DNA of 61,838 bases, the filler included, from Circinaria calcarea (lineage: Eukaryota): assembly GCA_051942165.1 (NCBI GenBank). It is 2 parts of 2 records of this genome, joined end to end, with 100 filler letters (N's around TTAATTAATTAA, not from the genome) between each part and the next. Parts side by side here need not be neighbours in the genome. Positions count along the whole stretch, not along the records: positions 1 to 31,086 come from JAVECS010000042.1; 1 more part is not named here. One strand, 5' to 3'. Below, in pieces: positions 1 to 37,279 of this stretch. The notes under the pieces are model-generated. The model was not told the origin of the DNA and did not search any database. It saw only the letters and a program-made list of their open reading frames with translations. The translations under genes were made by a program, and so were the position numbers. Within the stretch, counting starts at the first letter, position 1, and each line of letters begins with the position of its first letter.

Positions 1-128
1 GTCATACCCCTCCCCTTCTCCCTCTGCCTATGCCTCTCCCTCTATCCATACCTCACGCCAACCAGCAGCCCCCCCGCCCGTTCTCCTGCGTCTGGCACCC
101 GGGGGCACTTTGTACCCGCCGCGCACGT

Positions 129-164
129 AGGAGCAGGAGCAGCAGGAGCAGCAGCAGCAGCAGC
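129..164. repeat. (GCA/GGA) trinucleotide-type low-complexity repeat
   Basis: aggagcaggagcagcaggagcagcagcagcagcagc is visible directly. Confidence 0.8.
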
Positions 165-228
165 GCGGTCGTGTTGAAAGGGTGAACAATGACCGTGCAA
201 CGTTCAAGCCGCACTTGCAACTTGTAAA

Positions 229-275
229 CCGGAGGTAGGACCGGAGGTAGGACTGGATGTAGGACCGGGTGTAGG
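229..275. repeat. 12-bp tandem repeat (CCGGAGGTAGGA-like, about 4 copies)
   Basis: ccggaggtagga ccggaggtagga ctggatgtagga ccgggtgtagg. Confidence 0.8.
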
Positions 276-840
276 CGGTGTTGGGTAGGTTTTCTTTTCT
301 GTTTCTGTTTCTGTTTTGGGGAGGTGGGGTGTGGGGTTTGGGGTTGGGGTTTGGGGTTGGGGGAAGAAAAGGGGGATGGCCTTTTGCGGTGGCTTTTGGT
401 GAGGGATGTAGTCAGGCTGACAGTTTCTGGAGATATTCTGATTCAAGTGGGGTGGGAATAAAGGAATAGTGGTGGAAGAGCTTTTTTTCTTTCTTTCACG
501 GTGTGAACTGGGAGAAAGGAAAAGGTTGAAATGTCTTTTGGCGAGGATTTGGTGTTCAAGGAAAATGGGGTTTCTTTGACGGTGAGACAATACTCTTTCC
601 TTTTCAATGAGCAAAACAATACCGTTGTTCGTATTCTCGGAACTGGGAACAATCAATGCCTTTGTTCCCTACCTTTCCCCTTCTTCCTCCGCTTTTCTTA
701 TAAGAATCCCTTCTCCTCTCCACTGCAGACTCGATCTCTCCATCAAAACACACATTCCTATCAATATCTGACTTACCTTTGGACTGACCAATCACCGACA
801 CACATATTCACAGATCAACTACTCCCACTCACAAGCAGCG

Positions 841-1017
841 ATGTGCCATTTCAACGTCCTCAACCACGCCTGCGGCTGCTTTATCGCCAAAACCCGCGAG
901 CCCTGCGACTATGCCCGGATGGGATACACATGCTACGAGACGACGGAGCATGTCATCCAAGTCCCGCAGCTTTGCGAGAGACATAGGCGGTTTGCGAGTA
1001 CGGTAAGGGGGATGTGA
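841..1017 (+). CDS. Small Cys/His-rich protein (58 aa), below the ORF-track cutoff
   Basis: Hand translation: MCHFNVLNHACGCFIAKTREPCDYARMGYTCYETTEHVIQVPQLCERHRRFASTVRGM*. The MC-x8-CGC start and later Cys/His residues resemble fungal small MC...CGH-type proteins. A CT-rich promoter-like region lies upstream. Confidence 0.5.
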   Translation: MCHFNVLNHACGCFIAKTREPCDYARMGYTCYETTEHVIQVPQLCERHRRFASTVRGM

Positions 1018-1377
1018 GGGAATGAGATGTATGATAGCATGGAAGTGGGGGGGGAAGAGGTAATGTATAAATGAGATGTTTTCAGAGAAAATTAATCGTT
1101 TCGTCGCTATGGTGATGCACCTTCTGATTTGGAAACACTAATTCTAGAGTGGGGGATGGTGAAGAAGAAAAGTGAATAACATGGCCGAGAGTGAAGTCTC
1201 ATCCGAGATGCGGGGCTCACACACCACCGCCATTGTCTCTTATCCCTAAACGCTGTAGTGGCATACGTCGCCCTAGGGTTAGAGTAGTCAAAAGCTCTTG
1301 CACACCATAAGCGAGGCAGTAATTTTAATGTCAGGGAAATAAGCGAACAAGACAATGAAATCAAAGTGTGCATACTC

Positions 1378-1560
1378 CTTATTGCATACTGGTAGTGTCG
1401 GAGTGCTCAGAAATAGGAGGTAGTAGAGAGTTTGTGGTATAGTGATTGGTTAGCTGGAAGGATGTTGAGATTCTAGGGAGAACTCTAGCTATATAGGCGC
1501 CAGTAGGCGCGGCAGTAAGTCGGCAGGCCTGGCGGCAGACCAAAGGATTGTAAATAGTAG
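1378..1560 (-). mobile_element. Degenerate solo-LTR-like repeat, copy A
   Basis: Homologous in inverted orientation to about 4550-4739. Core 1468-1516 matches the reverse complement of 4609-4657 at 41/49 nt. A second matching block is cttattgcatactggtagtgtcggagtgctc versus cttacggtatacctatggtgtgggagtgctc. Contains a TATATAG box. Boundaries are approximate. Confidence 0.55.
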
Positions 1561-1666
1561 ACGAGGTAATCCAGCTTTCAGTATTCTTGTCGCTTTTGCT
1601 CATAAGTTTAATAAGTGAATAGATAATGACTTATCTAAGCCACAGAAGATTAGAATGCCTAAAAGA

Positions 1667-3979
1667 TCATTTCAAATCAAGACCTTTAGCGACTTGGTCC
1701 AATACCCGAGTTTTGAATGTTCGCATAAGCCTGGGCTGTGTACGGTAATCGTCCCACAGATTTTCAAACCCATCTTCGAGGCAAAGAACTACGGCATCTC
1801 GATAACCGGCCCCCATGGTGTGTCCTAGCGACTGTATGGCAATCTTGACTAATGCCTCTTGGATCAGTTCTGGCCTTGGATTCCTCACCTCTTTTACAAT
1901 TCCCTGTAAGTAGCGATGCTCTAATATATTTTGCCAGAGCCCGATTTCTAAAAGCAAAACCCCGTATGCGTATATATCATGCAACGCGTCGTGTCTCTGC
2001 AGAGGGACGCCATGGCGAGAGGGGTGCCTATATACATTCTTTTCAATATCGTCGACCTCAAGACCGTCTGAAATGTCGGTCTCCCTTCGTGAGTACTGAA
2101 AGCCTCCGAGAAAAGGCTTCGAGAAATCCCACGCCTGACTTCCGGTATTCTGGAAGATGAAAATGTTGCGACTACAGATCTCCTCATGTACCCACCCCAC
2201 AGAATGCCACTTTTGAATAGCGCGTCCGATGTCGTGGGCAATCCGAAACCGTTGTCCAAGGGTTGGTCTGACCTTTCTATAAGAAAGGCCAAGTAACTCG
2301 AAGCAGGTGGCATATGGAAGCGAAAGACCAGAGGGAACCTCAAAAACCAGTCCATAGTGGCGCGCGTAGCTGTCATGGAACCAATGTAGGCAATTCAATG
2401 AACAAAACTCTGTAGGCTTCTCGGAGTTCAAGATTTGTGCAAGTTTTTGGATCTTTATTGCGTCGCGGAGCTTTCTAGCCTGGCCGGGAGACTCCTCATA
2501 TGGCTTGTATTCAACAAGGACATCCATCTGCTTCACAGTTCCTATCACAGTCTTCTCGCCTTCAGGAGTTGATCCTTGGTGTCCATAAACGGACTGTATT
2601 TCCATCGCGTTGATTTCAAGTGAGTTGGAAGCCGATCCAGGGCCTTTGATAAGTCGTACAAGCCGCAGCGGGTTGTTGAGCCCTAGTACTTTGGCTGAAC
2701 TGCTGCAGGCTACATCCTCGAAAGTATCATCAGGCAACGTCACCAACTCGGCTTCCAGTCTGCGGATGACGGAGCTGTTTCGAAGTTCTAGCTCTTGGAC
2801 GAAATGTAGTATCTTCTCTTTTAGCTGTGACACCTTCTCGGGAGAGTTCAGTCCGCCCATTTGGATCCAGATCTGACTGACTTCAGCAAACAGACTGTCG
2901 ACTTCTTGCCAAACATCCAGAATCTCTTGTCTCTGAGCCTTGTCGAATGACTGTACTAATGGAGAAGTGCTGACTGACGAGTCGTGTCCTAGCGTAATCT
3001 GCTGTAGTTGCTCGGTTTGAAGCAACACCTCGTCAACGGCAATCTCCCGTACAAAAGTCGGTGCTTCTACTTTCAGCCACTGTACTAGATCGTGTAAAGA
3101 TCTATCCTGATTGTCTGGGTCTACAGACACGGCTACACGTAACTTTAATTGCGAGATGGCATCCGAAGACTCTGAAACAACCTTGTCTGTGCCAAGGAAA
3201 GGCTTCCAGCGGATAGAACGTCCTTGATGGCCAAGGCTCATATCATCGCGGATAGGTGTCTGCCTTAAGTTTGCTCGTTTGTGTGCTAGGCGATGAGCAA
3301 GGTGCGATGTCATGATTTGATTCATGCTGTCAAGCATCTCATTCATCTCCCTCAGCAGTGCAGTCGTGAATGAAGCGGGACCAGGAGAGGGTGTCTGAAG
3401 TTTCATTGCACATGCCGCAAGCAGCTCGCATTTCCCAGGGTCTTCCCTAACGCGACCTCTTGCAGCCTGAGCACTGTAACAGCAATCCAACAGCAGGAGG
3501 ACATCCGCTTTGCATTTATGGAGGTGAGGCTGAATCTCGTACCAGTCAACAGTTGGACCTCCTCTCAACTGTCTGTCCACATATTAGTGAATTACATCTA
3601 GCCTAAGAAGGGTTTCGGCTCGTTACGCTGCCCAGACAGCCTGCGATTCCCTGTCCATCCCTCTGTCATTGTCTGCGTCTCCATGGCCGCCATAGTGGAT
3701 CACGACCAGATAACCAGGCTTACCTTGGCTTTTGATGAGGTGAATGATTTCCGATAACAGTTCTATATGGCTATTTTCGGAAGGTATAGGATATACGGCT
3801 GTATCGAAACCCATAGAGGCAAAAAACTGAATTACTTTATCGGATTCGTCCTTGTATCCGGCGTCGTCTGCATATTGCCAGTAAAGCGACAGCAAAGATC
3901 CACCAATATAATCATTGCTATTTTCGAAATCGTGATTCAGCTCATTTATAAGTCTTGTTTTCCACAATTGAGGATCCAT
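1667..3979 (-). CDS. Caspase-like (peptidase C14 clan) protease fused to a helical linker and a C-terminal kinase-like pseudokinase, 752 aa, 2 exons (3979-3627, 3572-1667)
   Basis: A 54-nt GT-AG intron joins the ORFs in frame. His-Cys dyad motifs IHYGGHG and LLLDCC are present. The C-terminus has WVHEEICSRNI (in place of HRDLKxxN), LGGFQYSR (in place of DFG), YRHP and DIYAYGVLLLEIGLW, like the kinase-like domain found after fungal HeLo domains. Confidence 0.8.
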
Positions 3980-4549
3980 ATTAGATCTATGGCAGAGCGA
4001 TAAGAATGAGTCTCAAAAACCACGCACACGGGTGACAAAAAAACCGATGTGCTGAATAATGCTTTAGCGAAAGATCTTTACGGAGTAGGGGTCCATCCAT
4101 TGTTATGTATCGCTACTCGAAGTGGCCCCGAGTGACTCTCCTTGTAATTAAAACCAAGCATACTCATTGGCACCCACCAACTCCGCAGCACCCTCAACTT
4201 CGCAAACTTATACTAGAAATACCTCAGGGTGTATACATTATGCGCCTACGGAGTTGTGGGTGGGTGTAAATAAGTCTCCGGAAATTCCGTAGTATGTAAA
4301 TATAGGCGTTTTTACGATTGGATAATAATACCATTTACCAGATACACCTGAACGGACTTCTTAGAAGTTAAGCAGACCAAAGCATATTTTAGATCTAATC
4401 GTGTAATAAGCTGCAGACAGCGTACCCTTAACGATTATATTAAACGGCGAACTATCAAGAGCCACGGAAGGAACCTGACCTGCCCTGGAAGGTTCGTATC
4501 AAAATCTGACGTTCGATAAAAGATTACAAAGAGCAACGAACCATCATAT

Positions 4550-4739
4550 TGTAAGGAGAAAAGGTGTACCGCTTCGTAGGGCTAGTAGCCTTTCTGGCCT
4601 ACAGGCCAACTGCTACGCCTGCTGGCGCCTATATAGCACGAGCTCTCCTTAGGATCTGAATAATCATCTATACAGTCGATCAATCATTCCACTGCACCTA
4701 AGCCTCTAGAGCACTCCCACACCATAGGTATACCGTAAG
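4550..4739 (+). mobile_element. Degenerate solo-LTR-like repeat, copy B
   Basis: Starts TGTAAG, then a GC-rich ggcctacaggcc motif, a TATATAG box and an AATAA element. About 190 bp, and the inverted homolog of copy A. Confidence 0.55.
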
Positions 4740-4805
4740 TGCGCCTGGCGCCTGGCTCATGTTTGACCATTTCCCTTATAGTGTGATATCCTTGCCTGCT
4801 ACGGC

Positions 4806-5012
4806 TCAGGCGGCCATGAGCTGTTCTTCTGGCACGGCATTTCCGTCATTGACTTTGTTTTCATTACTATCGCACAGCATATACTGCTCCATATCGATGA
4901 CTTTTGCAATAGTATAAGGGCCCGTAACACCGCGGCTTCCGGGAGCAGCCCAATAGACACTGTCTCCAACACGGTATGTGCTAGCCTTCCATACGTAGTC
5001 CATGAGCGTCAC
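4806..5012 (-). CDS. Small beta-rich (SH3/Tudor-like) domain exon; 5' exons unresolved (candidate splice signals up to about 5190)
   Basis: YRVGDSVY...GPYTIAKV...YMLCD...VPEEQL resembles small SH3-like barrels. Upstream GTAGGC and GTCAGT donors and YAG acceptors exist, but I could not build a fully consistent model. Confidence 0.45.
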   Translation of the reverse strand: MTLMDYVWKASTYRVGDSVYWAAPGSRGVTGPYTIAKVIDMEQYMLCDSNENKVNDGNAVPEEQLMAA

Positions 5013-5875
5013 CTATCATATACGTCAGGTTGAATACTGACTTTCTTCTTGTTGATGCGTGGACGCCCTCCGATCTCTTGTTGGGGGCCTCCTTGATTGC
5101 TAGAAGCAACCACAAAGTCAGCCCGGTTGATAACGTTCCTTTGCGCGGCAGGCTATGAGAATGCTCCGCCTACCTTTGCCTTTCCATGGTCCGTTGTCTG
5201 AAATCCGGTTCGCCTATTTGGATGGCTCGAAAAGGTGGCGTTGTGGTTAGGCCTAGTTGCAATCGCAGGAATCTATTAAGGTAGGCGTAAGAGGCGGGGT
5301 AATAGCGGTCCGATTTGGGAAGCCTCTCGGTGTAACCATAAAGGGTTCCCATAAACAAGGGGGTGGAATTGAAAGTATTATTAAAAGTGATTAAATCTGT
5401 ATTAATATTAGTTATTGCTTTGGAAAAATATATTGAGTACGCTAGATTCCGAGAGCCTTAAGCGTTTCTACAAGTATATAATAACCTTAGATCTTGGTCC
5501 AATCGATTAGTTAGTCCAGCTTTCAAATCAAATTGTCTACGAGTGAAATATTCGGGCATCGGAGTTATTTTGCTCCGGGTCCAAATAGGTCTCGGTACTT
5601 GGCAGTCCGTGAGCTAGAACTTTCTTGTGTAGGTCCTTACTGGTAAAGAAACACCTTCTGCTAATCTTAATAGGGACCTCCTATCGCAAGTACCTTACTA
5701 TATAATTGTTTCTTCCAGTATTAGAATAAAATATCCTTCTCACTATACCAAGTCTTGATCGTGGTATTTATATATCTCTCTCTCTTTATCTATTATCTCG
5801 TATATCAGGAACTCCAAAAGATACCGGATTCCCATATCGGATTGTTATAGAAATTCCCGTTCTGAGCTTTATTCG

Positions 5876-7080
5876 ATGTCTCCAAACTGGGACGAGGTCC
5901 GTGGTAGCGTCTGCTGGTGGTGCAGGTGTCTGACTATTTCCATTCCGGGCTCTTGCTTTGTGTTTGCGGCTCGGAAAGTACGGGAATGGCTTCAACCGCC
6001 GGCTCGACCAAGCTTCACACCACAAGGTACAGTATATATTCGCCCCCCATAAGCAACAGCCTTTTCTTACAAGCAGCACTCCAGTGGAGGATTATCCGTC
6101 CGGCTACCCTCGTCTCTCTGCACTTGTCGGGGCACACCCGTCGTTCTTTGTGTGCCGTCGGTTCTCGACCCTGCGTGCTCGTCTCCTACTACAAAAGCAA
6201 GATCGAGTAGCCAAACTCGAGCATCGACTGCAGCACATCGATGAGGAAGAGCTGCATCCGCTCTTTCTTGGCAGTCTGAGAAGAGACAGGAATCAGGATA
6301 GAGATAGTGTGTTAGCCGATATAGATATAGCTTTGCAAGATTATGGTGAGGCAGTTACATAAATTTATACAGGGCTGAAAATTATAGAGTTTAGAAACGC
6401 TGATAAGATCTTTAAGATAGGTATCTGGAAAGACTTGATCATATCTTCGGTCTCAAGGCCGCAAGACCACGTGATGTCTCCAATCTGCGGAACTGGTTGG
6501 ATTACACGGGATGTGTTGCTCGTGACGAGACTGGGTTTTTAACAGTCGAAAAGGACTTGATTAGTCCCATTAGAGTAGAAGATGGTGCTTTAACGCCTTT
6601 CCAGGAGCTGATAGAGGATGTCGTGATTAGTATTCGGCCTCTTCAGCGTTTTGTGAGTCTGTATCCAAACTACTATTGCCTTTGTCTAACCAATCTACGT
6701 TCATTCAGCTCCGCTACAGCAATGTTTCTCGAGATCCCGATGTTAATATACTGCCTGTCGCCGTGGTAGGGTCCCTCGCGCATTTAATTGCTGTAGGACT
6801 CGTTATGATACTGCTCTTGGTTCCCGTTATTATTATTAATGCTCTAAACAGCATGACAGCCAAAATGGTTACTATAATTATGTCCTGCGCAATCTTTATT
6901 ATGTGTCTTCCGAGTTTCATACGAGCCAACATTAAGGAGACAGTTGTCGCTGGAACAACGTAGGTCTCCCTATATGCGGCCATAGCCCGTCTTAAAATCT
7001 GAGCTTCTTGACTTACGTTCTACAGCTATGCCACCGTCCTAGTCGTTTTCATCGCTGGCAACGGAATCGCCCCGATCTAG
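5876..7080 (+). CDS. DUF6594-family protein with C-terminal transmembrane helices (about 5 exons)
   Basis: The VEDYPSGYPRLSAL...FVCRRFSTLRARLLLQKQD motif, hydrophobic C-terminal segments and terminal TTYATVLVVFI are characteristic of fungal DUF6594. Introns lie at about 6027-6084, 6346-6415, 6653-6708 and 6960-7025. Confidence 0.75.
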
Positions 7081-7331
7081 TTCAATCATCAGAGCAATGA
7101 CTAGGACGAACTATTTCTACGTGTCCGCTATACTGTCTTTTCAACATGTTCTCTACGATCTAGTGGAGCTCTAAGTGTGTTGTCGTAGGGTGGGCGCCAA
7201 GAAGACACCCTGATAGACATGCGGAAGTACGAAAGTGGTGTTTAACTAGTATTTAACATTGAGCTTTATATCTTTCACTGGTCAAACTCATATAGAAGCT
7301 TCCACATGTCGTAATAAGGCTGCTCTTCTGA

Positions 7332-10300
7332 TTAATACAGATTTCCCCAGTCCTCGAGCTCTACGATCTCTGCGTCGAATTGGCGCGGCCTTGCTATACG
7401 GGAATCCTCTCCGGGTGGACTTTGGGACTTGCCCCCTCGTTCAATTATGAGTTCCACGATATCCATAATTGCGAAGTATTTTTCTCCTGTTCTGAATCAG
7501 TCACCTTGTAAATACAGCTATGTCCTCAACGTACTGTTGTAAATCGATGTATCACCGCCCACTAGAATGCGCCTTTGTTAGATAAGCTTACTGTGGAGCA
7601 CTTTGACTAACCAGTCTCCTTCGAAAGGATTTCCCCAGCCCAGAATAGTTCATTAAAGCTGTCCGGACTCCTATTCTTACTGTGGCCTCGATGCCTTGGC
7701 GGTTCTCCTTGCGGTGCGTGTGTGCTCCAGCGCTCTAAGCCAATGCGGCGCAACAGTTCGGCTTTATGCAGAGCGTAATCAAGGATAGAGAGACCGTTCT
7801 TAGAAAGGATTTGCAAATCAATGGTTGGTCGTAATAGGAACTTGACAGTCTCGAGATGGGCGTTCAAGATTGCCACCGTCAAGATATTAGTACCTCTATC
7901 TCTCGCCAAAATGCCGGGTTCGTCCCCATAGAGCTTTGTGATAAGATCGTCATGGCTTACGGCTTCTGTTCAGTTGAAAAGCCTTTTAATAATTCTCAAA
8001 CAAAGGCGGTCGCCGAGCGTATTGTTTCTGCAAGTGGTCCATATTAGATCACCTATATCCTCTTTGTCCAGCTTCACAGCCCCGTGGTAATTAAGCAGGA
8101 ATTCAAAACGGAGCTCAACGTCCTTCCCTTCTGTTACTCTGCGGTTTATTGTAGATTTTAAGAGACTATTACCGTGGTCATTCCTGTGAGTCACATATTT
8201 GCACAGAGGATTTCCGAGCAGGATTTCCATTGCGCGCTTGAAATAATCGAAGGAGGGGTTAGATACCGCATGGTGGAATACATTTTCACCTAGATAATCT
8301 GTCTCGTGAGTTTGGGGCGAAAGATCCATTAGCAGACCAAAGACGGGCTCCCAGGTTCCTGGATATATGAGCTTTTCTCCGGCTAAAGACGCCCAACGAT
8401 GGATTGGTAATCCCTCCAGATCATCACATAAAGATGCGTCCGCTCCAGCTTTCAATAATGCTATGGTTACTCCACCGTCTTTAGATTCGATAGCATCTAA
8501 TAAAGGCGTATTGCCGTTCTGACGTGGGCCCCTTCGGGCGTTGATGTTGCCACCAGCAGCCACTACTAGATTGACGCACTTAGAAACAAGCTCGATATGC
8601 GTAACTTGTCCGCCGTGATTACACCACCAATAAAGGCACTTGGGAAGCCTTAATTTTCGATTCAGAAAGCTTCCTGCGAGCATATGCAAAGGGTTGAGGC
8701 CATGGCCATCAACGCGATTTGGATTGGCTCCACGCTGGAGCAAGAAACTTACCACTTCCGCGTCTCCTCGATACATTGCCATACCTAGAGAAGTATGTGC
8801 TTCATCGTCTGACTCTGAGTCTAATTCATCCACATCAACACCAGCTTGAAGCAAAGCTTCCATCGCTGGGAGAGATCTCGTGAAGCAAGCCCAGTGAAAA
8901 GGTGAGCCGATAGGCCAATGGAACGGGAAATGCTCGAACAGAATGTGTTGCCAATATGTCCCTTGTCTTGCATTTCTCGTTCTAGCGCTGAGATATGCGG
9001 ATCTCGATTGTAACATTTGGACAACTGCTTCGATGGAGCCCTCATCGAACATGAATAACCAGTGAAGGCATGATATGTGAGCCACTGCCGTCGTTATGGA
9101 CGCATCTGCATTAAGCTCGACCAAAACCTTGAGGGTCTCGAAGTTGCCTGCTCTGGCAGCTTTGTAAAGGGCTGTCTGTCCTTCGCAATCCACTTCGTCT
9201 ATGCTGAATGGATTGGCAAGTCTAAGAATGTCGGCTACAGTGCCGTATATCGCCGCTTCATGAAGTTGCATTACCGCTGTACTGCCTTGGACAGTAGACG
9301 GGCGTGGCGAAATCCCAATTGGCGATATCGATCCATTAAAGCCTCCACATTTACGAAACGCTCCCCAAGCCTGCTCCTCCAAAGAGTGTGACATTTCGCG
9401 AAGTTGCCACAAAGCTGTAAATGAGCCACTAGCCGCAGCCTCAAGGAGCCAGACCCTTCCTTGATGCAGCTTTTCCGTCGAGGATAGACTTGATGCTGAG
9501 CCGCATGCTCTGGAGATCTGGTTGAGGAGGCCCTTCGCCGCCAAACACGAGGCTTGCGCAGCAGCTCGCATATATTTCAAGGTGTCTCCTTGGTAACCAT
9601 CCCTTTTCGCAGAAGCGGTGCAAATTGATAGACCGAATAGAGACGCACTTGAAAAGCTAGTACTATCCACATCATACTCCCTATGCAGCTGAGAGAGCAA
9701 TGCGCTATCCATACTTCTCCAAAACTCGAACCAGGATCTTAGCGCAGGATTTGATGGATCAGGGTCACGCTCAAGCAACTTCTTGCCATTTGCCCTGTAA
9801 GAGAATTTAGGCAAATAAACCAAAGGTAAGCCAAAGGCCAAAATGGAGCAACTTACCAATTCCTGTACGTCTCACTATCGTCGCAGAGCAACTCTGGATT
9901 TACATCTGGCCGCAAATTAGGCTTATGAGCAAGAAGCTGGGAAACTCGTAAACGTAGCACCGTTGCAAGTGGCTGAGCTATCAACGTATCGTCTTTCCAG
10001 TCTTTTGTGCTATCAGGTACAAATGGCTGCTGTCCGTTTCGTAAAAAGACAGAGAATACAAGCAAACCATAAACATAACAATCACACTTGAAGAAAAGCT
10101 GTTGAGGCATTACTTTACTCCATCTCGTCTTAGTTTCGTAGACTTCTGGGGGTTTCCAGCCTTGAGTACCAGTATACATACTATATGTCATTGATGTCGA
10201 GTTTGGCAGGCTTAGTTCAATAAAAGCACCAAAGTCCGCCAATTTTGCTATAAATGGGACACGTGGATTCGCAGATTCCGTTACAAGGATATTATCAGGT

Positions 10301-10941
10301 TTCAGGTCTCCGTGGACGATATTGCAGCTGTGAACATGGCGAAGACCTTCAGCTATATCTAAACACAGCTGATGCTTGATATCTGTCGATGGAAGCTTTT
10401 GATTTAGAAACGTCTTTAGGGATCCGATGGCTTTCTCAATCATTAATAAGGGACGAAAATCTGAGTTGTAAAACGAAGAATAATCGAAGCCCCATGATTT
10501 GATTTGTATAATGTTGATATGAGATTTTATATCGTCTCGCGCCAGAGCATAGATTTCCCGTTCGAACAACCCAAGGTCGGGTCTCCGTTGCTATATTCAA
10601 TAATATATTAGCTCTTCCGGCGACTTTGCGCACTGGCGTGCCATAAGAGCACCCACCCTTCGGTAAACCATACTGGTCACAATGTCGTGAGCGTCGTCGA
10701 ATATATCAAAGAATCCTCCTGACGCTCTGTATGAGCCCGCTGCGGACAGATTCGCTTCCCTCATGTGCCATGGCCCTGAGATACTGCGCTCCGCGAGCAG
10801 AGCAACTAGTTTTGGTAGGTGAGCCGAGCGAGAGTTTCTGGTTCCTGTTTCTCCCAACAGCGCCTTAGACGCAAGAATCTCATTTGTCGCCAGGGACTGT
10901 TGTGTTCGACGGCCTTCGTCATTTGACGCGTATGTACTCAT
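7332..10941 (-). pseudogene. Protein kinase + Sel1/TPR-like linker + ankyrin-repeat gene with in-frame premature TGA at 7970-7972 (truncated allele or pseudogene)
   Basis: Kinase motifs HGDLKPDNIL, LADFG, GTQGWKPPE and DCYVYG. Many ankyrin repeats (GQTALYKAA, HTSLGMAM, GLNPLHMLA, GNTPLLDAI, GENVFHHAV). Introns at about 10656-10591, 9856-9795, 7611-7562 and 7534-7487. ORFs 7970..9859 and 7607..7909 share a frame and are separated only by one TGA. Confidence 0.7.
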
Positions 10942-11853
10942 GGTGGGTCGCTATATTTCCGTTGCTCTTGAAAGAAATAAATTGGCTGAGTATTAGGGTA
11001 AATGGGGCAGGCACATCTACGGAGTAAGCCAACTGTTTACAGCTAGATTGTATGATGCTTAGCCTCAAATGAGTGCTCCGGATTCTAAACTTATCACGAT
11101 ATGCAGGGACTATGCCGGCGGCTGTGTTACTATGCTTATTGGCTACAGGTAGAAGCCTAGACTGCAGTGTAATTAGAATAGTATCATGCTGCTCTAAGAC
11201 TCTTGTTCAAAGCGGCAATTGCTTTTCTCTGGTGGCGATGAAAATGCCTCCATAACCTTAACCCCTGTGGCTCCGCGTGCGTGCGTTCCTTGAATACAAG
11301 GTTGGGATTGGTCAAGCTAGGCTAACACGGTCTACCAGAACAACAGCTCGAGGAATTGCTTTTGACGCCAAGTCAACAAAGCTAAAATGTCTGCAAAGTA
11401 ACCTCGACCCCGAGCGAGCAGAAGTACTGCTTTGGTATGATACGTAGACCTTTGTGTGATTGGCTATGATAATATTGGGATAAAGGGTCCGAAGATGTTG
11501 GCGGTCCCGCTAACGGATAAATTCCCCGACTTTAAGGTTGGAAAAATGTTTGACCGAAGGGTTTGATTCTCAGCCCTGTCAGCTCCTGACTTGGATTCTC
11601 AGTACGACTCCATCGTTTGACATCATTGGATGCTTACGCCCTCTCCAACTTTTTGCCACCACCACAGGAGAAAAATGTCGTGTCGAAGGGCGTCCATCTT
11701 CCTCCGTCGTCGACATGCTGTGAAGGAATCCTCCATATTGATCGCCCCACGCTATAATCGACCGAGAATTCATCCGAACCCTCTGACGCAACGAGACTCG
11801 ACGGGAAAGCTCCTGACCTGACATGAACTATATATACGCCCTTGGCGCCAAGT

Positions 11854-14211
11854 ATGATTCGCGCAGATGAGCTGCATGGCCGACAGATTTGGGTTATGCC
11901 AACCAGCACGAGCAGCTCCCTGCGTCGGCACTGCACCCCATTTACGCTTCCTTCCAACGGCATCCTCACCATCGACTCCACCTCGGTCATCACTTTGAGT
12001 CAGAATGCCGTCTTTCAACCCGAGTGTACGAAGCCTCCGTCGCCGCTACCGAATGCAACAAGCTCGGAGACAGCCATTTTCAATACTAGAGACCCCTTCT
12101 ACATTTCCATCTCGCCCCAGATTTACGCAACCGCAACCACCACGGTCGTCAGCTACATGCTCGTCATTATGCTGTTCATCACACCGCGGACCTTCTTCAT
12201 CGGAGGGGCGGGGGGAGGAAGCCGATTTCTCGGGCGCCGTGGTTTGATAAGTGGAGCGTCTGGGAGTGCATCTGTTGTCGGTGTTGGGGGGAGACCTTGG
12301 CTGCAAAAGGTTGCGACTCTCACGGTTGCCATATCCTTGACCATTGCGACGGTGGATACCTTCGAGGTCGCTAAAGCGCAGTACGACAAGGGGTATCAAG
12401 ATGCCACCGCTCTCACAGATCGCGTGGTTGGAGGACTTGAGATACGGGTGATAAGAATCATATCCGACACTTTTCTGTGGCTTGCGCAAGTCCAGACTTT
12501 GATCCGACTGTTTCCCAGACACAAAGAAAAGGTCATTATCAAGTGGATTGGATTTGCACTCATTATCCTGGATACCCTCTTTAGTATTCTCAACACGTTT
12601 GTCAGCGACCATGGTAGGGTTCGACCCCGGAGATTCGTCGAAGCGATCCCTGCGGTGAGCTATCTGTTTGAGCTTGCTTTGAGCTTGCTCTATGCCGCAT
12701 GGGTCATATATTATTCCTTTGAAAAACGCCGGTTCGCCTTCTTCCATCCCAAAATGCGAAATATATGTTTGGTGGCAATCTTGTCTCTCTCAGCCGTACT
12801 CGTACCTGTCACTTTCTTTGTACTGGAAATCTCCAAGCCTGATATAGCCAGATGGGGAGATTACGTGCGATGGGTAGGGGCTGCGGCCGCAAGTGTGGTT
12901 GTATGGGAATGGGTTGAAAGAATAGAAGCACTAGAAAGAGATGAGAGAAAGGAGGGCATACTCGGCAGGGAGATTTTCGATGGAGACGAGATGCTTGACC
13001 TAACACCATCATCTGAGGGGAACTGGCCAAGGAATCTGAGAGATCCACGCCGAGGTTCCGGAGGAGACAGGCATATCAATACAACTGGACGGTCTGGTGT
13101 GAGCAAAACTGTCGGCACAGCAGAGCAGACAGCAAGGTCACGTGTCCCGCCAAGATACGTCAAGTACGCCCGCCGTAAAAACGGGGGCATTGGACCCTTG
13201 GATCGTGGAGCTATCATAAGTGGTGCAGTAGATTCGCGGACCTTATCCCATCAGAATCACCCGACGCCACCTTTACCGGTGGCTTCGCCTATAAGTCGAT
13301 CAGACACGACAAGTGCCTCAAGCACCGTTTACGCTGTGCATTATCATACTATCAGCACTTCAACTTCTCCAGGTCCAGATCTATCTAGTATACGTTCGAG
13401 AAGATATATGAACGGTGAGTCTTTCTCGACACCAACGCCCCCGGCGGCGCCATTAATCGCCCCTGGTACCACAAACGGGACGATAGAGCAACACAGCACA
13501 TTGAATACGCCTCCAGTACCATCGAACGTTGAACCGGGACCTCGTTGGCAAAACCTTGTGCACAATCCTTTCAAAAGACAACGGACGACTCCACCTCCAG
13601 AAGTAGCACACGCAACTCAGCGCCTTGCAAATGATTCATCACCTACAGCAGCTCGCCACAAGCATTCTGTCCGAAATACCCGCATGGCTGATCGGCTACG
13701 AGTAAAGAGACGCCCGAGAGCGCCAGACGTGGCCCTACCCGTGGTCACAATCCCAGCTCAGCCACGTGGTAAAACTTACAAGCCTCCAGATCTGTCAACG
13801 GGAACCGCACAAGTTACCCAAAGCGACGAATATGCAGTTAATGGTACTCCGAGTGAACTCATTGAGGATTCTGAACAGGCTCCGTCTTCGTCCCAGCAGA
13901 GACCGTCCCCGTCTTTGGAACTACCTAACAATGAATCAATAGCGACTCAGCGCCGTGATCAGATGGTACCGAGGGTATGTCGACCTCATGATTCCGTACC
14001 CGGGACAGGTACTTTTCATCGGCCATTAGGAGGCGATGTGCCCCCGGCACCAGTGCCTGCTGATATATCTCTTGGAGCAACGGACGAGTTTACAACCAGG
14101 CTGGCTCGCGAATTATCTGACCATCCCGAGCCGGAACATACATACCCAGTCCAGCCGTTGCAGAGGGCACCGAGTACAGATACTGCGTTAGAGTCAAGAA
14201 AACCACCATGA
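11854..14211 (+). CDS. palH: pH-response 7-transmembrane sensor PalH/Rim21
   Basis: RPWLQKVA, WLAQVQTLIRLFPRHKEK and VVWEWVERIEALERDERKEGILGREIFDGDEM motifs. Multiple TM helices followed by a long disordered tail. Single exon. Confidence 0.93.
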   Translation: MIRADELHGRQIWVMPTSTSSSLRRHCTPFTLPSNGILTIDSTSVITLSQNAVFQPECTKPPSPLPNATSSETAIFNTRDPFYISISPQIYATATTTVVSYMLVIMLFITPRTFFIGGAGGGSRFLGRRGLISGASGSASVVGVGGRPWLQKVATLTVAISLTIATVDTFEVAKAQYDKGYQDATALTDRVVGGLEIRVIRIISDTFLWLAQVQTLIRLFPRHKEKVIIKWIGFALIILDTLFSILNTFVSDHGRVRPRRFVEAIPAVSYLFELALSLLYAAWVIYYSFEKRRFAFFHPKMRNICLVAILSLSAVLVPVTFFVLEISKPDIARWGDYVRWVGAAAASVVVWEWVERIEALERDERKEGILGREIFDGDEMLDLTPSSEGNWPRNLRDPRRGSGGDRHINTTGRSGVSKTVGTAEQTARSRVPPRYVKYARRKNGGIGPLDRGAIISGAVDSRTLSHQNHPTPPLPVASPISRSDTTSASSTVYAVHYHTISTSTSPGPDLSSIRSRRYMNGESFSTPTPPAAPLIAPGTTNGTIEQHSTLNTPPVPSNVEPGPRWQNLVHNPFKRQRTTPPPEVAHATQRLANDSSPTAARHKHSVRNTRMADRLRVKRRPRAPDVALPVVTIPAQPRGKTYKPPDLSTGTAQVTQSDEYAVNGTPSELIEDSEQAPSSSQQRPSPSLELPNNESIATQRRDQMVPRVCRPHDSVPGTGTFHRPLGGDVPPAPVPADISLGATDEFTTRLARELSDHPEPEHTYPVQPLQRAPSTDTALESRKPP

Positions 14212-14762
14212 CTCTCAGTACTAATCACCCTCTTTATCTTTCTACGAGTTGTCTGAATTGGGATGCGGAGTAAAGGTTATCAACGATCCTACAAAGTAGA
14301 TGACGATAGGCGGCCAAAGGGATCCGGTGTTGTGGACTATATCGTGTGAATTGATATATATTGGCAATCTAGTTATATTCCCTAGATTACATTAAGCATG
14401 GCCATCGCCTTGCCATCGACTATGTTCATTAGTGTTGGACTCTGGTAGACACGGTGTCCTGTAGAGTGACTGCTCCAGAATCCTCAGTACTACGTCGGCA
14501 TTTCTAGACAAAAGACCTCCGGTCAAACAGAATGAATGAAGTATCCTCGGAGATAAATTGAAAAAAGGTGTGATCCTCCCATGCAGAGACGGGAATTATT
14601 CATTCCCGTTCATCTTGTGTTTTCTAGTCTCACGGCCGGATCATTAAGCCTAAGAAGCGCGATTTAAAGCGTTTGTTCATACACCCTTTTCAAACCAGTG
14701 TCCTTTTTCGTCCCATTTGACTTATGTTTATACCAACTTGGGAGACCAGGTTGTGAGATAAT

Positions 14763-16668
14763 ATGGGCACCATGTTTGACCGGGGAGCTGTCGTCAATGG
14801 CAATGGTTCTGGGCCCGGTGGCCTTCCCCTGCCTTTGAACCTAATCGCAGTGATTATCTCCTATGTATGATAAGATTCAGCTTTCTGACACTGCACTGAG
14901 CTGATAGTGATTCCAGCTTGACGAACCAGGCGATCTTTCGCGCGCATGTCGAACTTGCCGTGTGCTGCACTACATGACTATACCCCAGCTCTACTCGAAT
15001 GTGTCATTGCATTCCTACGACCGTATCCGATATTCACCCTTCGACGGGAGGCCCGAAGGATGCGGTGGGCCGAGTCCTTTCATCATGGCGCTCAATGCCA
15101 TTGTGACAAGGAATGTCGCAGGCTACGTTAAGAGGTTCAGGGTGTACGGGACATGGAAGGAATATGACCTCGAAGAATGTGCAAAGGTTGGAAGACTCTC
15201 CAGCACTCTTTTTGGATAGGCGGATAACATCCGGATCAGGTTGGACGAGTACCAGACGGGAGCATGATGATCAACACGCTAATCCGAGCGGCGATTGATC
15301 GAATGCCTTCATTGGAGAGCTTCAGGTATTTGGAGATGTTACCCTGCAAGCGTTCTGGCTCTGACCTAGGGAATTTTCTAGCTGGGAACTTAACACCAAG
15401 ATGCTGCCAACGGTGTGGATGGGGCTCGCACAACGGCCAAACCTACTGGATCTCACGGTCAAATTCCCTGGGACCCGCTTTCCAAGGCCAACGGTGATTG
15501 TGCCGCCCCTGCCCAAACTTGTCTCCCTGAAACTCACAGACATTGATCCTTTATGTTACCCAGACGATATCTCTCTTCTCCTCTGCGAATCCAAGGCCCT
15601 AAGTCATCTCAAGATGCATTGGAGCCCTCGTATGCGAGAGGCCCGGGAGCCCAGTGTCACTCTATCTTCCTATTTTGGCAGAGCAATTGCGCTAAACTAC
15701 AAGTTGCCTCTGAAGACGTTGGCGTTTCACAACCTATACGCCCAGCACGACTCGGTTGTTCATGATCTTCTCGATCTTACGGTGGAAGAATTCTCAATGA
15801 TTAGCAGTGCGGCCGGTGTTGGCGATTCAGCCGACATGGCATTTATTGACTACAGCTGGAGAACGTCGCCGCCAAAAACCATGCCTCCATTCAAGATGAT
15901 TCGCGGTGATAAGGTTTCTACTACGCACTGCTCGCTCCTAGGTAGGTTGAAAGGCCTGGAGCGATATTATCAGATTACGGGACGTAAACTCAAGCCAATG
16001 GAAATGGACGGCAGTACTGAAAGCACACCTCATTATGCCGATCCACGCCCTGTGCCTGTGGAATCACCTGTTACCCCAGAGACGCCAGCGGACCCCTCCC
16101 TAATTAGTCTTGGCGCGAGTTATCTCGATAACATATGCAACTGTCATGGCTCTACCCTCCGCCATCTCCTCCTTATGCCTCAATGGCGTTTGTCATCTGA
16201 AGAGCTTGCGCGCCTTGTCCGTAGCTGCCCACTGCTGGAACAGCTGGTACGTTCCAGGTTCCCATACCGTTGATTCCATGACGAATTAGACTGTGCTAAC
16301 CCAGCCATAAGGGTTTCGGGCTCGACTTTTCGAGTTTTAATATTTTTCGGCTCTTAATACCATTTCTGCCACAGCTTCACGCCATTAGAATTCTGGACCA
16401 GCCTCACGAAAGCGGCCTGTCGGACAAGATTTTGGAGAAAGGCGTCCAGTATGAAGAGTGCATGCTCGGCAAAGAGGCGTGGAAGCGTAACTGGACGCGT
16501 TTGAAATGGGTTGGCGTAGGAGACTTTGTATTCGAGGTACACGGGAGTGAGGTCATAACGGAAACCGCCGAGGATGGATCCATACAAAGTCGAAGGAAGG
16601 TGCTGCGACGACCCCTAGACGCCGTGAAAGATGTCGAGATTTGGAGCATGGACCGTCTGGAAATCTGA
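14763..16668 (+). CDS. F-box domain protein with LRR-like C-terminus (multi-exon)
   Basis: The spliced N-terminus LPLPLNLIAVIISY|LDEPGDLSRACRTCRVLHYMTIPQLY is an F-box. Leu-rich segments follow downstream, with several short GT-AG introns. Confidence 0.8.
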
Positions 16669-17030
16669 CAGGCTCGCCGCGGATTTCGAGCGTTGGGGCA
16701 GATGTCTCAACATACAGGGCGGTAGATTATTTCATGTCACCAGGCACATCTGGGGAAGCATCTCCGACCAAGAGGAACGAAAGAACGCGGGCGCACGACA
16801 TAGGCACGAGCGACATAGCTGCAGGCGGTTTCCTAGCACGCCGTACGCGCACCGGACCTGAAGTGCGGCACCCCGCAGCTAACACCCCTTGTCGAAATTA
16901 AACATCACACGCCAATTACGATGTCGCAAGCTTCTTGTTATTTATGATTCCGTTCCGCTGCTATTCGTGCTTTTTACACTCTAGGCTCCTTGATCTAGTC
17001 TTCAAGCTAAAAAAATTAAAACTCTTTCAA

Positions 17031-19461
17031 ATGGAAATCGAAGGGGAAAAAACTCAAAACGGCTCGGGCCAGCAAGCTTCGAAAGCGAAACCATGGTCAA
17101 CGTCCGTCGAGTCCGAATGCGGTCGTGAGCCAAAACATGCCTTCGACTCTTACTATTCCGAAAAGGGATCAAGTGCTATTCCCATCTTCCGCACAGCTTC
17201 TTCCTCTTGGCGTCCAAGGCTACTATTCGGCGCGTTCTGCGTGCTGAGTTGGTATACCGTGGTGTCCCTTTACAACAACTCAGGTTTGCCAAGTTACCAC
17301 CTCCTAAGAGAGGGAGACATCCAACCTCGTGCCACTTTATCTTATCGCGCCCCGAATTCAACCTCACCTACTGAGCGTAAAGCAAAAGCCTTCGTGCCTA
17401 CCAAAAGCTTTTACTAATCTCAATGCCAGTCGCCCCTTTCCTCTTGCGACCCCTCGCCCTTGGCTCGATCAAGCCCCAAGGATGGCTTCGAGACCAAATG
17501 GTTCTTATGGCCGATGGCCTTGCTGGACATGAATTTGAGTTCTACGAAATGGTACATGACTCTCCTTGGCTTGGTGGGAAATCCGAGTACTCCCCTCTGA
17601 ATGAAGGTTTCCCCTATTGGTTCAATGGGCTTGTGCCGTTGGCCTACGGACTGGATGATCCTCGACTGAAAATGCAAGTTCGAGATGGTGTTGACTACGT
17701 CTTGGCTCACCAACAGCCTGATGGATGGCTCGGTCCTGAAACGGACTTGGCTTCCAGGGATATCTGGGGTCGATTCCCTCTCTTCCTAGGCCTAATTCAG
17801 CTCATAGAGGCAGACTCGTCCATGGGACCTAGGCTTATCCCAGCAATGTACAAGTTTGTCGATCTGATGCTATCGTTGCTCAGAAAGGGTCAAGGTACAA
17901 AGGAAATCTGGGGTCGTGCTCGCTATGCAGATATGGTCATCTCTTTGCAATGGCTATACGAGAACTATCCTGAATCCAGAGAGAATGACTTGTTGGAGAA
18001 CATGCATCTTCTAAAGGACCATGGTTTGGATTGGGCTAATTACTACGATGAAAGAAACTTCATCTTCAACGATCTCGATACTGTTGATCTTGCTATTACC
18101 GAGGCTGCTTTTGGTTTCGTGCACGCTGTGAATGCCGGGCAGGGGCTCAAGACGGGTGCGGTTGATTATAGATTTACACGAAACCAATCCTTACTTGAGA
18201 GCACTCGCAACGGTGTGAAAAATACCTTTCTCTACCATGGGGCTGCCTCGGGAACCATAATTGGTGACGAGAGAGAATCCGGTCTAGCGCCAAATCGAGG
18301 TTCGGAACTTTGCACAGCCGTGGAAGCCATGTACTCTCTGTCATATCTTTATCAGATGCTTGGCGACAATTCTTTCGCTGATCGTTCGGAATTGGCTGCG
18401 TTTAATGCACTACCGGTAATGCTTACACCTGATATTTGGGCCCGCCAATACATTGCCCAGCCAAACCAGCCTTGGAGTCGCAAAGTTGACTCAGCAGGTT
18501 TGTTTTGGAATGTCGGAGATGAGGGAATAACATACGGTCTCGGTATATATGAGTTGTATCCCCTTGTATGGTACTATAAGCTGATTGTTGCTCAGCACCA
18601 AACTACCCATGTTGCACAGTCAATTTTCCACAAGGATTACCCAAATTCATAGCTGCGTCGTTTGTTACTGTGGGGGAGGATGGTGTCGGGCATGCGCTTC
18701 TGGGACCGGCCGATATTTCAACGACCTTACCCAATGGAGCACTGATCAATGCCAGCTGTGACACCCAATACCCGTTCGGAGATGATCTACATTATACCGT
18801 TAAATCGACCGCTCCTTTCAAATTCTATACTCGGATTCCGCAGTGGAACTCGAACAACCCCGTTACAGTTCTCATTAACGGCCAACCCAGTGAAGCACAG
18901 ATACCAGATCCCCACACCGGAATGATATCTATGGCCTTACCTCAAGGCAACAACCTAATCTCATTGACACTAAACCCCAGCATCCACATCGAACCCCGTG
19001 CCAACTCCACGGTCTCCATCTATCACGGCTCCCTCCTTTACGCTCTCGACGTCGGTCAATCCATGCAAGTGGCCTCCAATAACTATCACCGCCGAGCCGA
19101 TCCTGTCCCCATCCCCCCTCAATCCCACAGCTACACCATCACCAACACCCTACCCTGGAACATCGCCATCGATCCCTCCACGCTGACCTTTCATACAAAC
19201 TCCAGCGCAACGGATCTGCCTAATCCCATTTTTGGATACCAAGCCCCGCCGGGTTGGATCACCGCCAAAGGATGTCAGATCGAGTGGCCGGTAGATCATG
19301 GCGTTCCGGCGCGTGTACCGTTGCCCGGGAATCGGCCCTGTGTGAGTGCGGTGCAGGAGGTGGTGTTGCGGCCGTATGGGAGTTTGAAGGTGCATATGGC
19401 CGAGTTGCCGACTGTGGAGTTGAATATCAGTAGGGGGGCAGGGACTGGGCGAGGGGGTTAG
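17031..19461 (+). CDS. GH127-like (DUF1680, beta-L-arabinofuranosidase-type) glycoside hydrolase with N-terminal membrane anchor, 3 exons
   Basis: LGSIKPQGWL, EGFPYWFNG, GSELCTAVE, spliced PNYPCCTVN and TQYPF motifs. Introns at about 17377-17429 and 18543-18595. A hydrophobic segment (LLFGAFCVLSWYTVVSLY) follows a roughly 60-aa polar N-terminus. Confidence 0.8.
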
Positions 19462-37040: not shown

Positions 37041-37279
37041 TGTCGGAGAATAGCGTGTTAGGTCTCTTGCCAAAGCTGTCCACCACGCCAAATAGCTTCT
37101 GTTGAATGTTGATGCCGCTTTAGATACAGCCCTATGTGACTTTAAAGGCGGCCCTACATAAAGTTTATAAAGTTTAACGCCCCACCAACGAGAATAGGTA
37201 CTTCTCCTGCAAATCAGCAAGGCGACAATCATTTATTTCGATACGATATTCAGAGATACCCTGAGGCCGATAACTTCCA

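Follow-up and report, generated by a model that had tools for sequence, protein, structure and literature searches.

The 61,838-nucleotide stretch of Circinaria calcarea DNA studied here (NCBI GenBank assembly GCA_051942165.1; the whole stretch is hereafter called the window) carries four genes between positions 1667 and 10941: a C14 protease-pseudokinase, a 65-amino-acid barrel protein, a DUF6594 protein and a protein kinase with ankyrin repeats (kinase-ANK). The question raised by this locus is whether the four genes work together and, if so, what for. On the evidence presented below, we propose with slightly better than even confidence that the locus holds one copy of a four-gene signalling module conserved among fungi, in which a kinase-gated protease would have membrane damage as its output, likely in cell death or defence.

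Gene content of the cluster

The four genes, numbered along the window, are the following:

3979-3627 and 3572-1667 (stop codon 1669-1667), minus strand: gene 1, C14 (caspase-like) protease-MLKL-like pseudokinase, 752 amino acids, 100% identical to P0001
5003 (ATG) to 4806 (stop codon 4808-4806), minus strand: gene 2, small protein predicted to form a Tudor/SH3-like barrel, 65 amino acids, matched by a hidden Markov model (HMM) of its relatives
5986-6026, 6074-6345, 6417-6652, 6709-6959 and 7026-7080, plus strand: gene 3, DUF6594 (PF20237) membrane protein, 284 amino acids, five exons with GT..AG introns
10941-10657, 10590-9857 and 9794-7973 (exons), in-frame TGA at 7972-7970, ANK tail 7969-7607, minus strand: gene 4, protein kinase with ankyrin repeats

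The limits of the cluster are exact, position 1667 being the end of the gene 1 stop codon and position 10941 the start of the gene 4 ATG. The initial annotation had called these four genes from the sequence alone, and both its domain calls and its coordinates were confirmed. The genes of the window carry short GT..AG introns, of fungal character: gene 1 has a single one (GTAACG..ACAG), the spliced frame of gene 3 is open up to its TAG, and the second intron of gene 4 (9856-9795) is in frame.

The product of gene 1 is the NCBI protein Q9187_000555 (P0001), from a metagenome-assembled genome (MAG) of Circinaria calcarea, and gene 4 corresponds to Q9187_000556 (P0176). The NCBI tags of these two flanking genes are consecutive, and on this basis only the barrel (4806-5003) and DUF6594 (5986-7080) genes lying between them seem to lack an annotation among the public entries.

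Co-occurrence of the four genes in other genomes

A profile of 25 members of the gene 1 family was searched against metagenomes, and the best 80 of 305 confirmed matches gave 78 loci, each taken with flanks of up to 10 kb. The loci were collapsed into 65 groups at an identity of at least 90%, and then sorted solely by the region N-terminal of the pseudokinase, which gave 23 C14-type loci, 34 non-C14 loci and eight loci cut by a contig end. In the all-versus-all comparison of open reading frames (ORFs) from the 65 loci, the recurrent families were the query itself (65/65), kinase-ANK (42/65) and DUF6594 (17/65). A further family of small ORFs, the barrel proteins, was found between gene 1 and the DUF6594 gene.

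The distribution of the barrel and DUF6594 genes follows the C14 domain. Among loci with at least 379 nt of downstream flank, the barrel gene is present in 17/17 C14-type loci and in 0/31 non-C14 loci; the other six C14-type loci have less than 200 nt of downstream flank and stand outside this count. The DUF6594 gene, searched by tblastn and phmmer with 47 queries, was detected in 14 of 15 C14-type loci, in none of the 18 non-C14 loci with at least 2 kb of downstream flank, and in none of the 34 non-C14 loci at any flank, their representatives totalling 374 kb. The Fisher test for the DUF6594 association gives a p value of 1.8e-8, which is inflated by relatedness and overstates independence, because the C14 loci form one related group. 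Among the cut loci, the barrel gene occurs in 7/8 and DUF6594 in 4/4.

The kinase is found by tblastn in 15/23 C14-type loci and in 16/19 non-C14 loci with at least 3 kb of upstream flank, and Pfam confirms Pkinase plus ANK in the kinase neighbours. Locus L078 is positive for kinase-ANK by Pfam and was missed by tblastn, and the C14 loci L024 and L032 contain ORFs that belong to the kinase-ANK blastp family.

The neighbouring genes are always immediate, 0.02-6 kb apart. Writing C for gene 1, s for the barrel gene, D for DUF6594 and K for the kinase, the core order is C> s< D>, with the kinase gene either upstream in divergent orientation or downstream, where it is in tandem or convergent. Variant orders also occur: L006 reads D< K< C> s<, and the window and locus L001 read K> D< s> C>. 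Relatives only about 30-35% identical to the window protein keep the cluster. Genes 1 and 4 have orthologues in Lepraria neglecta (OEA41_004835 and OEA41_004837), on a single 4.73-Mb contig and with locus tags two numbers apart.

The initial annotation had predicted that the genes would be found together in other genomes, and the metagenome loci bear this out strongly, in relatives of about 30-35% identity and with varying gene order. The opposite outcome that it had considered, genes that do not co-occur, is contradicted by the barrel and DUF6594 counts (17/17 and 14/15 versus 0/31 and 0/18). In general, DUF6594 proteins, kinases and ANK proteins are common in ascomycete genomes, which could favour a picture of four unconnected genes brought side by side by separate insertions into a variable region. 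Such an accident would have to explain why DUF6594 and barrel genes accompany the C14 form and are absent from all 34 and all 31 non-C14 loci, respectively, and why the partners always lie next to each other; we regard its chance of being correct as practically negligible. We are instead highly confident that the four genes are a functionally linked module.

The C14 protease-pseudokinase protein

At the N-terminus of P0001, Peptidase_C14 (PF00656) matches residues 47-224 with 24.2 bits (cut-off 21.4, E 3.1e-5). In the PF00656 scan of 10 relatives, three scored above the cut-off (P0001, P0026 and P0028) and five more below it. The protease motifs of P0001 are HYGGH99GD and D147-C148-C149. The first, HYGGHGD, is found in every row of the 25-member family alignment that bears the N-terminus, bar P0053 (YYGGHGG) and P0034 (no motif); in the second, D147 does not vary, and conservation is 90% or higher at C148 and C149. 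Judged by these motifs, the His...Cys dyad of the putative protease is conserved and the cysteine protease looks intact. Two further observations serve as leads only: the D-x-C arrangement, which we take to be that of metacaspases and paracaspases, cutting after Arg or Lys, and the result of the ESM Atlas feature search with the C14 domain, in which 28 of the 30 nearest named clusters were Peptidase_C14 (top score 0.96).

Further along the protein, residues 544-697 give weak kinase matches (PK_Tyr_Ser-Thr and Pkinase). In P0001, H580-E-E stands in place of HRD and GGF in place of DFG. The HRD Asp and the DFG Asp are lost in all 25 relatives, which have HQG, HKS or HEE at the former and xGF, mostly GFE, at the latter; the Asn is retained, and a Ser a few residues past GFE/GFQ (Ser619 in P0001) is nearly invariant. 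In MLKL, GFE replaces DFG, and the phospho-sites follow directly. The best PDB matches of the family profile are MLKL pseudokinases (4btf, 3.1e-8; 6vbz, 2.8e-7; 4m68/4m69, 4e-7; 6lk5, 1.4e-6), with LIMK1 and IRAK4 ranking after them. The DUF7580 family (PF24476, cut-off 27) has no match in P0001 at E<=1; it reaches 29.7 bits in P0028, 26.9 in P0026 and 31.7 in P0055, and many of the loci match it too. Since P0001 has Peptidase_C14 as its N-terminal head and no HeLo match, the window protein is not an MLKL orthologue, and it may work like MLKL.

The named relatives among the matches listed, which are not a survey, belong to Lecanoromycetes, Pezizomycetes, Sordariomycetes and Leotiomycetes. P0001, from a MAG labelled Circinaria calcarea, is about 84% identical to the Lepraria proteins P0022 and P0025. 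Circinaria and Lepraria are lichen genera of different orders, and this identity could stem from the label, from an unusually slow evolution or from gene transfer.

The HeLo sister module and the probable origin of the protease form

A HeLo domain (PF14479) joined to a DUF7580 pseudokinase, which is an MLKL-like architecture, was found in 21/34 non-C14 loci, and also in P0055 (Daldinia). These loci have a kinase-ANK neighbour, usually placed head to head, and carry neither DUF6594 nor the barrel gene. They are listed here:

L020, L030, L035, L037-L041, L043, L045, L047, L050, L053, L057, L061, L063, L067-L069, L075, L076: HeLo plus DUF7580 with Pkinase plus ANK

The exceptions among the non-C14 loci are L041, without a kinase neighbour, and L075, whose kinase is without ANK.

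In a quick maximum-likelihood tree computed on the pseudokinase domains, with a midpoint root only, all 21 C14 rows and seven cut rows with a barrel gene fall in one group of 28 rows (SH-aLRT 88). This group sits in a starred set of 30 rows together with two non-C14 loci, L020 (HeLo) and L036 (N-terminal part without a Pfam match), and the starred set is itself nested among HeLo rows. This topology is most simply read as a single origin of the protease form out of the HeLo form, through a swap of the N-terminal domain and the gain of two genes. As the C14 loci fall in one group, the counts given above represent one old association and not many independent origins; the association of C14, barrel and DUF6594 was retained through several rearrangements. 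Our best reading is that the module would derive from a fungal necroptosis-like pair made of a kinase and a HeLo-pseudokinase.

The partner kinase

The kinase-ANK protein of the window matches Pkinase (1.3e-20) and ANK (1e-20) in Pfam. The Sel1-like repeats that the initial annotation had placed in it could not be recovered, as P0176 has no Sel1 match at E<=0.5; a weak Sel1 match is present in a single relative, in L019. A homologue search with the ANK exon returned generic ankyrin proteins only.

The family of partner kinases retains GxGAxF, VAVK, HGDxKxxN, DFG and APE, and looks active on these motifs. The solved structures nearest to the profile of the family are LRRK2 (4.4e-37), Roco4, SOBIR1, DAPK1, ULK1 and IRAK4; RIPK3 is absent among the 60 listed PDB matches.

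We also considered whether gene 4 is a pseudogene, and rejected this: two of its apparent stops (10599-10591) lie in a well-formed 66-nt intron at 10656-10591 (GTGGGT...CTAAT...TAG), and only the TGA at 7972-7970 remains.

The DUF6594 and barrel proteins

The DUF6594 family (PF20237) matches three ORF pieces of gene 3, with E-values of 1.2e-19, 1.7e-7 and 8.9e-6; on its own, the piece from the first exon reaches 71.7 bits (cut-off 30). Intron positions and the motifs GYPRF, RRF, KQD, FLGxxRRDxN and SRDPNV are conserved across the family. Hydropathy peaks at residues ~194-258, with Kyte-Doolittle windows above 1.6 starting at 194-240. The protein is modelled as a helical, probably cytosolic part of about 190 amino acids followed by C-terminal membrane helices. 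The structure predicted for the N-terminal 188 amino acids contains long helices (pLDDT 70.4, pTM 0.40); it was computed on the L013 sequence, the first of the model alignment, which probably contains a read-through intron.

The HMM built from relatives of the barrel protein matches positions 4809-5012 of the window (E 9.3e-17) and 29 loci. In Pfam, the barrel protein stays below the cut-off of every family. The AlphaFold2 model (pLDDT 84.3) has four beta-strands and a short helix according to the DSSP listing, and its top Foldseek matches are PWWP/Tudor domains (TMq 0.54-0.66, E 0.02-0.1, none <=1e-3). The ESM Atlas neighbours of the protein are unnamed clusters, mostly labelled viral (0.90-0.92), and are uninformative.

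Searched against a representative library, the barrel profile matches 403 clusters at E<=1e-3, of which 132 reach E<=1e-10; the matching proteins are mostly 60-130 amino acids long and have the barrel at the C-terminus. One match, P0322 (858 amino acids), has the barrel at residues 11-67, followed by a TPR region and, at the C-terminal end, by His, Asp and GDSG motifs. The only Pfam match in this protein is TPR_10; the motifs of the C-terminus, read by eye, suggest a trypsin-like serine protease. P0322 is a second, independent link between a barrel and a protease, and a single case among the 150 matches listed.

The barrel gene may possibly have an upstream exon, since the 242 nt upstream of its ATG (5004-5245) are 79% identical to L001 and many members of the family bear an N-terminal tail of about 30 amino acids. 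A clean splice model was not found for such an exon in 5004-5245.

Comparison with locus L001 and selection on the four genes

The cluster belongs to a block shared with the metagenome locus L001, and is followed in the window by palH:

1636-10954: block colinear with L001, 73-83% nucleotide identity (blastn), about 82-83% over the genes
11827-14211: palH (PF08733, E 1.3e-118)

The flanks of L001 (3.2 kb and 10 kb) have no blastn match in the 61.8-kb window; by tblastx, one match of 23 codons is listed for them, at 39% identity. The palH gene has no tblastn match in any locus, L001 included. Because the L001 flanks are unmatched in the window and palH is absent from L001, the block is in different surroundings in the window genome and in L001.

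The initial annotation had described relics resembling long terminal repeats between the genes. Such relics did not emerge from our searches: direct repeats are absent from positions 1-16000, and the intergenic pieces have no matches in the window except for an inverted repeat of 65 nt. The two arms of this repeat (1465-1529 and 4596-4660, 78% complementary) flank the C14 protease-pseudokinase gene, and one arm is within the block shared with L001 while the other is outside.

The ratios of nonsynonymous to synonymous substitution rates (dN/dS) between the window and L001 are the following:

Gene 1: exon 1, 0.13; exon 2, 0.17
Barrel gene: 0.30
DUF6594 gene (two exons): 0.26 and 0.25
Kinase-ANK gene: kinase exon, 0.21; ANK before the TGA, 0.26; ANK after the TGA, 0.17

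All four genes are therefore under purifying selection, with dN/dS of 0.13-0.30.

The change of surroundings could also be expected if the module were selfish or mobile, for instance a toxin-antidote system, a killer or the cargo of a giant transposon. Co-transfer, and not a benefit to the host, would then hold the genes together, and the barrel protein could act as antidote to the protease or as its inhibitor. The 9.3-kb block is all that the window and L001 have in common, with 13 kb of L001 flanks unmatched, and a potentially harmful enzyme tightly linked to a tiny partner may recall toxin-antidote pairs. Furthermore, L004 has at 16497-17198 an ORF for RNase H, probably left by a retroelement, at a distance of some 4 kb from its cluster, which is the only C14-type one without DUF6594. 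On the other side, transposases, tyrosine recombinases and terminal repeats were not found in the window's part by the Pfam scan and the repeat searches, the internal gene order varies, which is unexpected for a unit moving intact, and the dN/dS values are low for all four genes. We consider a selfish unit quite improbable.

Proposed mechanism

If the four genes are a signalling module, the way in which it could work is the following. The kinase, tyrosine kinase-like (TKL-like) and with C-terminal ankyrin repeats, would be the presumed sensor and activator, its ANK repeats sensing a cue. In gene 1, a helical linker would join the C14 protease to the pseudokinase. The kinase would phosphorylate or bind the region of the pseudokinase activation loop that bears Ser619, and the pseudokinase would then switch or oligomerise, freeing or clustering its N-terminal head. 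The C14 domain would be activated by proximity and would cleave the DUF6594 protein, the barrel protein or both. The output would most likely be membrane damage, leading to regulated cell death or defence. In the HeLo form the head would attack membranes itself. Since DUF6594 and barrel genes travel only with the protease form, they are the obvious candidates as targets, and the barrel protein may otherwise be an inhibitor, an adaptor or a bait.

The steps of this scheme do not deserve the same confidence. That the kinase acts on the pseudokinase is, in our judgement, an even call. That the DUF6594 protein is the substrate of the protease or the executioner is tentative, with a chance clearly short of even. 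For the role of the module as a whole in cell death or defence, we lean slightly towards a positive answer. More doubtful is the wider proposal that fungi hold a kinase-driven necroptosis-like pathway with two interchangeable outputs, a HeLo killer or a caspase-like protease that activates a DUF6594 executioner.

A real functional unit could also be non-lethal. Indeed, a regulatory module active for instance under membrane or cell-wall stress, in hyphal fusion or in development, built on the kinase-controlled proteolysis of a membrane protein for signalling, in the manner of regulated intramembrane or juxtamembrane proteolysis, would fit the conserved clustering equally well; DUF6594 has no known function and its model no fold match, and the cluster adjoins ordinary housekeeping genes. 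HeLo domains, present in the sister module, kill cells, and the pseudokinase is closest to MLKL, which both point away from such a role. The membrane-targeting nature of HeLo and its relationship with the four-helix bundle of MLKL, as given in the 2025 review PMC12881547, point in the same direction. Moreover, the genomic context differs in the 83%-identical L001, and the named relatives span four ascomycete classes among the matches listed; a context that shifts is seen more often with genes of accessory or defence type than with those of core signalling. We hold the non-lethal alternative unlikely, and keep a cell-death or defence module as the preferred reading.

Points that weigh against the proposed module

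Several observations weigh against this reading, and concern both the window copy and the family. The C14 assignment combines a weak Pfam score, conserved motifs and a look-alike search by language model, so that it is to be taken as putative, and a three-sequence profile of the C14 domain retrieved no PDB chain at E<=10. The DUF6594 N-terminal model, of moderate quality, has no match to a solved fold (Foldseek against PDB, best E 0.6). The C14 locus L011 has no kinase within 7-10 kb, and DUF6594 is missing from the C14 pair L004/L005 despite flanks of 10 kb. Finally, the association of the genes may have arisen only once, and its persistence could partly be inherited synteny.

The kinase of the window itself raises two problems. 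The first is an Arg in place of the VAIK Lys, common to the window, L001 and Lepraria; an Arg at this lysine usually cripples a kinase. The second is the in-frame TGA at 7972-7970, which removes the last ~120 amino acids. The L001 and Lepraria proteins code through this position and have a Cys there. The NCBI model P0176 bypasses the TGA with an intron that has a weak GTGATC donor and removes 28 codons. These 28 codons are conserved as coding in L001, and the Lepraria neglecta protein, with its Cys at the TGA position, spans only the last part of the stretch. Because the P0176 intron crosses sequence that is coding-conserved in L001, we interpret the TGA either as a nonsense mutation that arose recently or as a fault of the assembly. 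Together, the Arg and the TGA weaken, for the window allele, the claim of the initial annotation that the ANK kinase phosphorylates the pseudokinase. In addition, the Lepraria proteins on record (L. neglecta and L. finkii) are gapped or truncated: P0025 is without the His/Cys region, P0177 is without the ANK block, and P0022 shifts frame in the pseudokinase. These gaps could reflect decay of the cluster or problems in the gene models.

Taken together, the Arg, the TGA and the state of the Lepraria records would suit a real module whose window copy is crippled or decaying, with an impaired and truncated sensor kinase, a view that overlaps all the others. The constraint measured on gene 4 argues the other way, as dN/dS is low in the kinase exon and in ANK on both sides of the stop; the value of the tail implies that it was constrained until recently, or that the TGA is an assembly error in the MAG. 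The window kinase also keeps HGDLKPDN and DFG intact, and the other three genes are intact. We would rather bet against a crippled copy, while granting it a real chance.

Comparison with known cell-death systems

The initial annotation had drawn an analogy with animal necroptosis, and this analogy gained support: the best solved relatives of the pseudokinase family are MLKL, and sister proteins made of HeLo and pseudokinase lie beside kinase-ANK genes. The likeness to the RIPK3-MLKL pair is threefold. An active-looking TKL-like kinase appears to be paired with a C-terminal pseudokinase that lacks the HRD and DFG aspartates; the fungal pseudokinases have the nearly invariant Ser after GFE/GFQ; and the sister loci put a HeLo head on a related pseudokinase. 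The differences are that the head of the window protein is a C14 protease and not a four-helix bundle, that the fungal kinase bears ankyrin repeats and does not bring RIPK3 among its 60 listed structures, and that the fungal genes are clustered, with the barrel and DUF6594 genes added to the unit.

The fungal gasdermin clusters (HET-Q1/HET-Q2, with CHAT or S8 proteases) are similar in having a protease gene beside the gene of a putative membrane-acting protein, and a protease within a multidomain, sensor-type protein. Unlike in those clusters, the membrane partner in the window is an integral DUF6594 protein and not a soluble pore-former, the protease matches C14 and not CHAT or S8, and kinase-ANK and barrel genes are included. 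No gasdermin family is among the Pfam matches of the window ORFs in 1-14 kb or of the scanned neighbour ORFs.

The HET-S/NWD2 and HELLP/PNT1 systems, in which an NLR (NOD-like receptor) switches a HeLo/HELL executioner by amyloid templating, share with the present case gene clustering and, for the sister module, the HeLo domain. Control here would be exerted by a kinase/pseudokinase pair and not by an NLR, and no NACHT or NB-ARC match was found in the Pfam scans of the four genes or of the scanned neighbours. The only NACHT match in the window is a weak one, inside the PEX1-like AAA protein at 42805-46110.

RIPK4/ANKK1 and LRRK2 are architectures that combine a kinase with ankyrin repeats. The fungal protein likewise has an N-terminal TKL-like kinase followed by ankyrin repeats, with LRRK2 as its best solved relative; unlike LRRK2, the fungal kinase-ANK proteins have no LRR, ROC or COR matches in Pfam. 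Considering all these systems, the module would seem to join the logic of necroptosis to the protease-plus-membrane-protein logic of the gasdermin clusters, and to be a member of neither.

As far as the accessible parts of the cited papers go, the described clustered fungal cell-death systems are NLR/amyloid-HeLo pairs and protease-gasdermin pairs. According to the accessible part of PMC12881547, some HELL domains occur in proteins with kinase or pseudokinase domains, the proteases that control gasdermins can be fused to kinase-like domains, such fungal pathways often are two- or three-gene clusters, and fungal "MLKL-like" HeLo/HELL-pseudokinase proteins are noted merely as an architecture. 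That text does not name a kinase-ANK partner, DUF6594 or the barrel protein, and the accessible parts of PMC10197012, PMC8851545 and PMC9815663 hold nothing on such a cluster. Within the literature searched, again as far as the texts were accessible, no description was found of a kinase partner of HeLo-pseudokinase proteins. Likewise, no described cluster of a C14-pseudokinase or HeLo-pseudokinase with kinase-ANK was found, subscription journals, supplements and other names being outside the search. The terms DUF6594 and DUF7580 were also searched, and neither was found, with subscription journals and supplements outside the search.

Placed against this background, the kinase-ANK gene, adjacent to the pseudokinase in most loci of both kinds, is a specific candidate for the switch partner, and the long-standing question of kinase-driven necroptosis-like signalling outside animals becomes directly testable. 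The DUF6594 and barrel proteins gain a testable hypothesis, as substrate, executioner or regulator of a caspase-like protease. If the proposal is true, necroptosis-type and pyroptosis-type logic would be united in a single gene cluster, the partnership between a kinase and an MLKL-type pseudokinase would predate the split of fungi and animals, and DUF6594 would represent a new class of membrane executioners set off by proteolysis. Short and clustered, the four genes are easy to transfer into Podospora, Neurospora or yeast.

Other genes of the window

Beyond the cluster and palH, the remaining genes of the window are housekeeping ones and include GH127, a Zn-cluster factor, RhoGAP, DAP3, RRS1, MCM7, PEX1 and others. 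The gene of DAP3, the mitochondrial ribosomal death-associated protein 3, is an ordinary housekeeping gene unrelated to the cluster, and its match is divided between two adjacent ORFs on the same strand, at 35442-36332 and 36336-37232.

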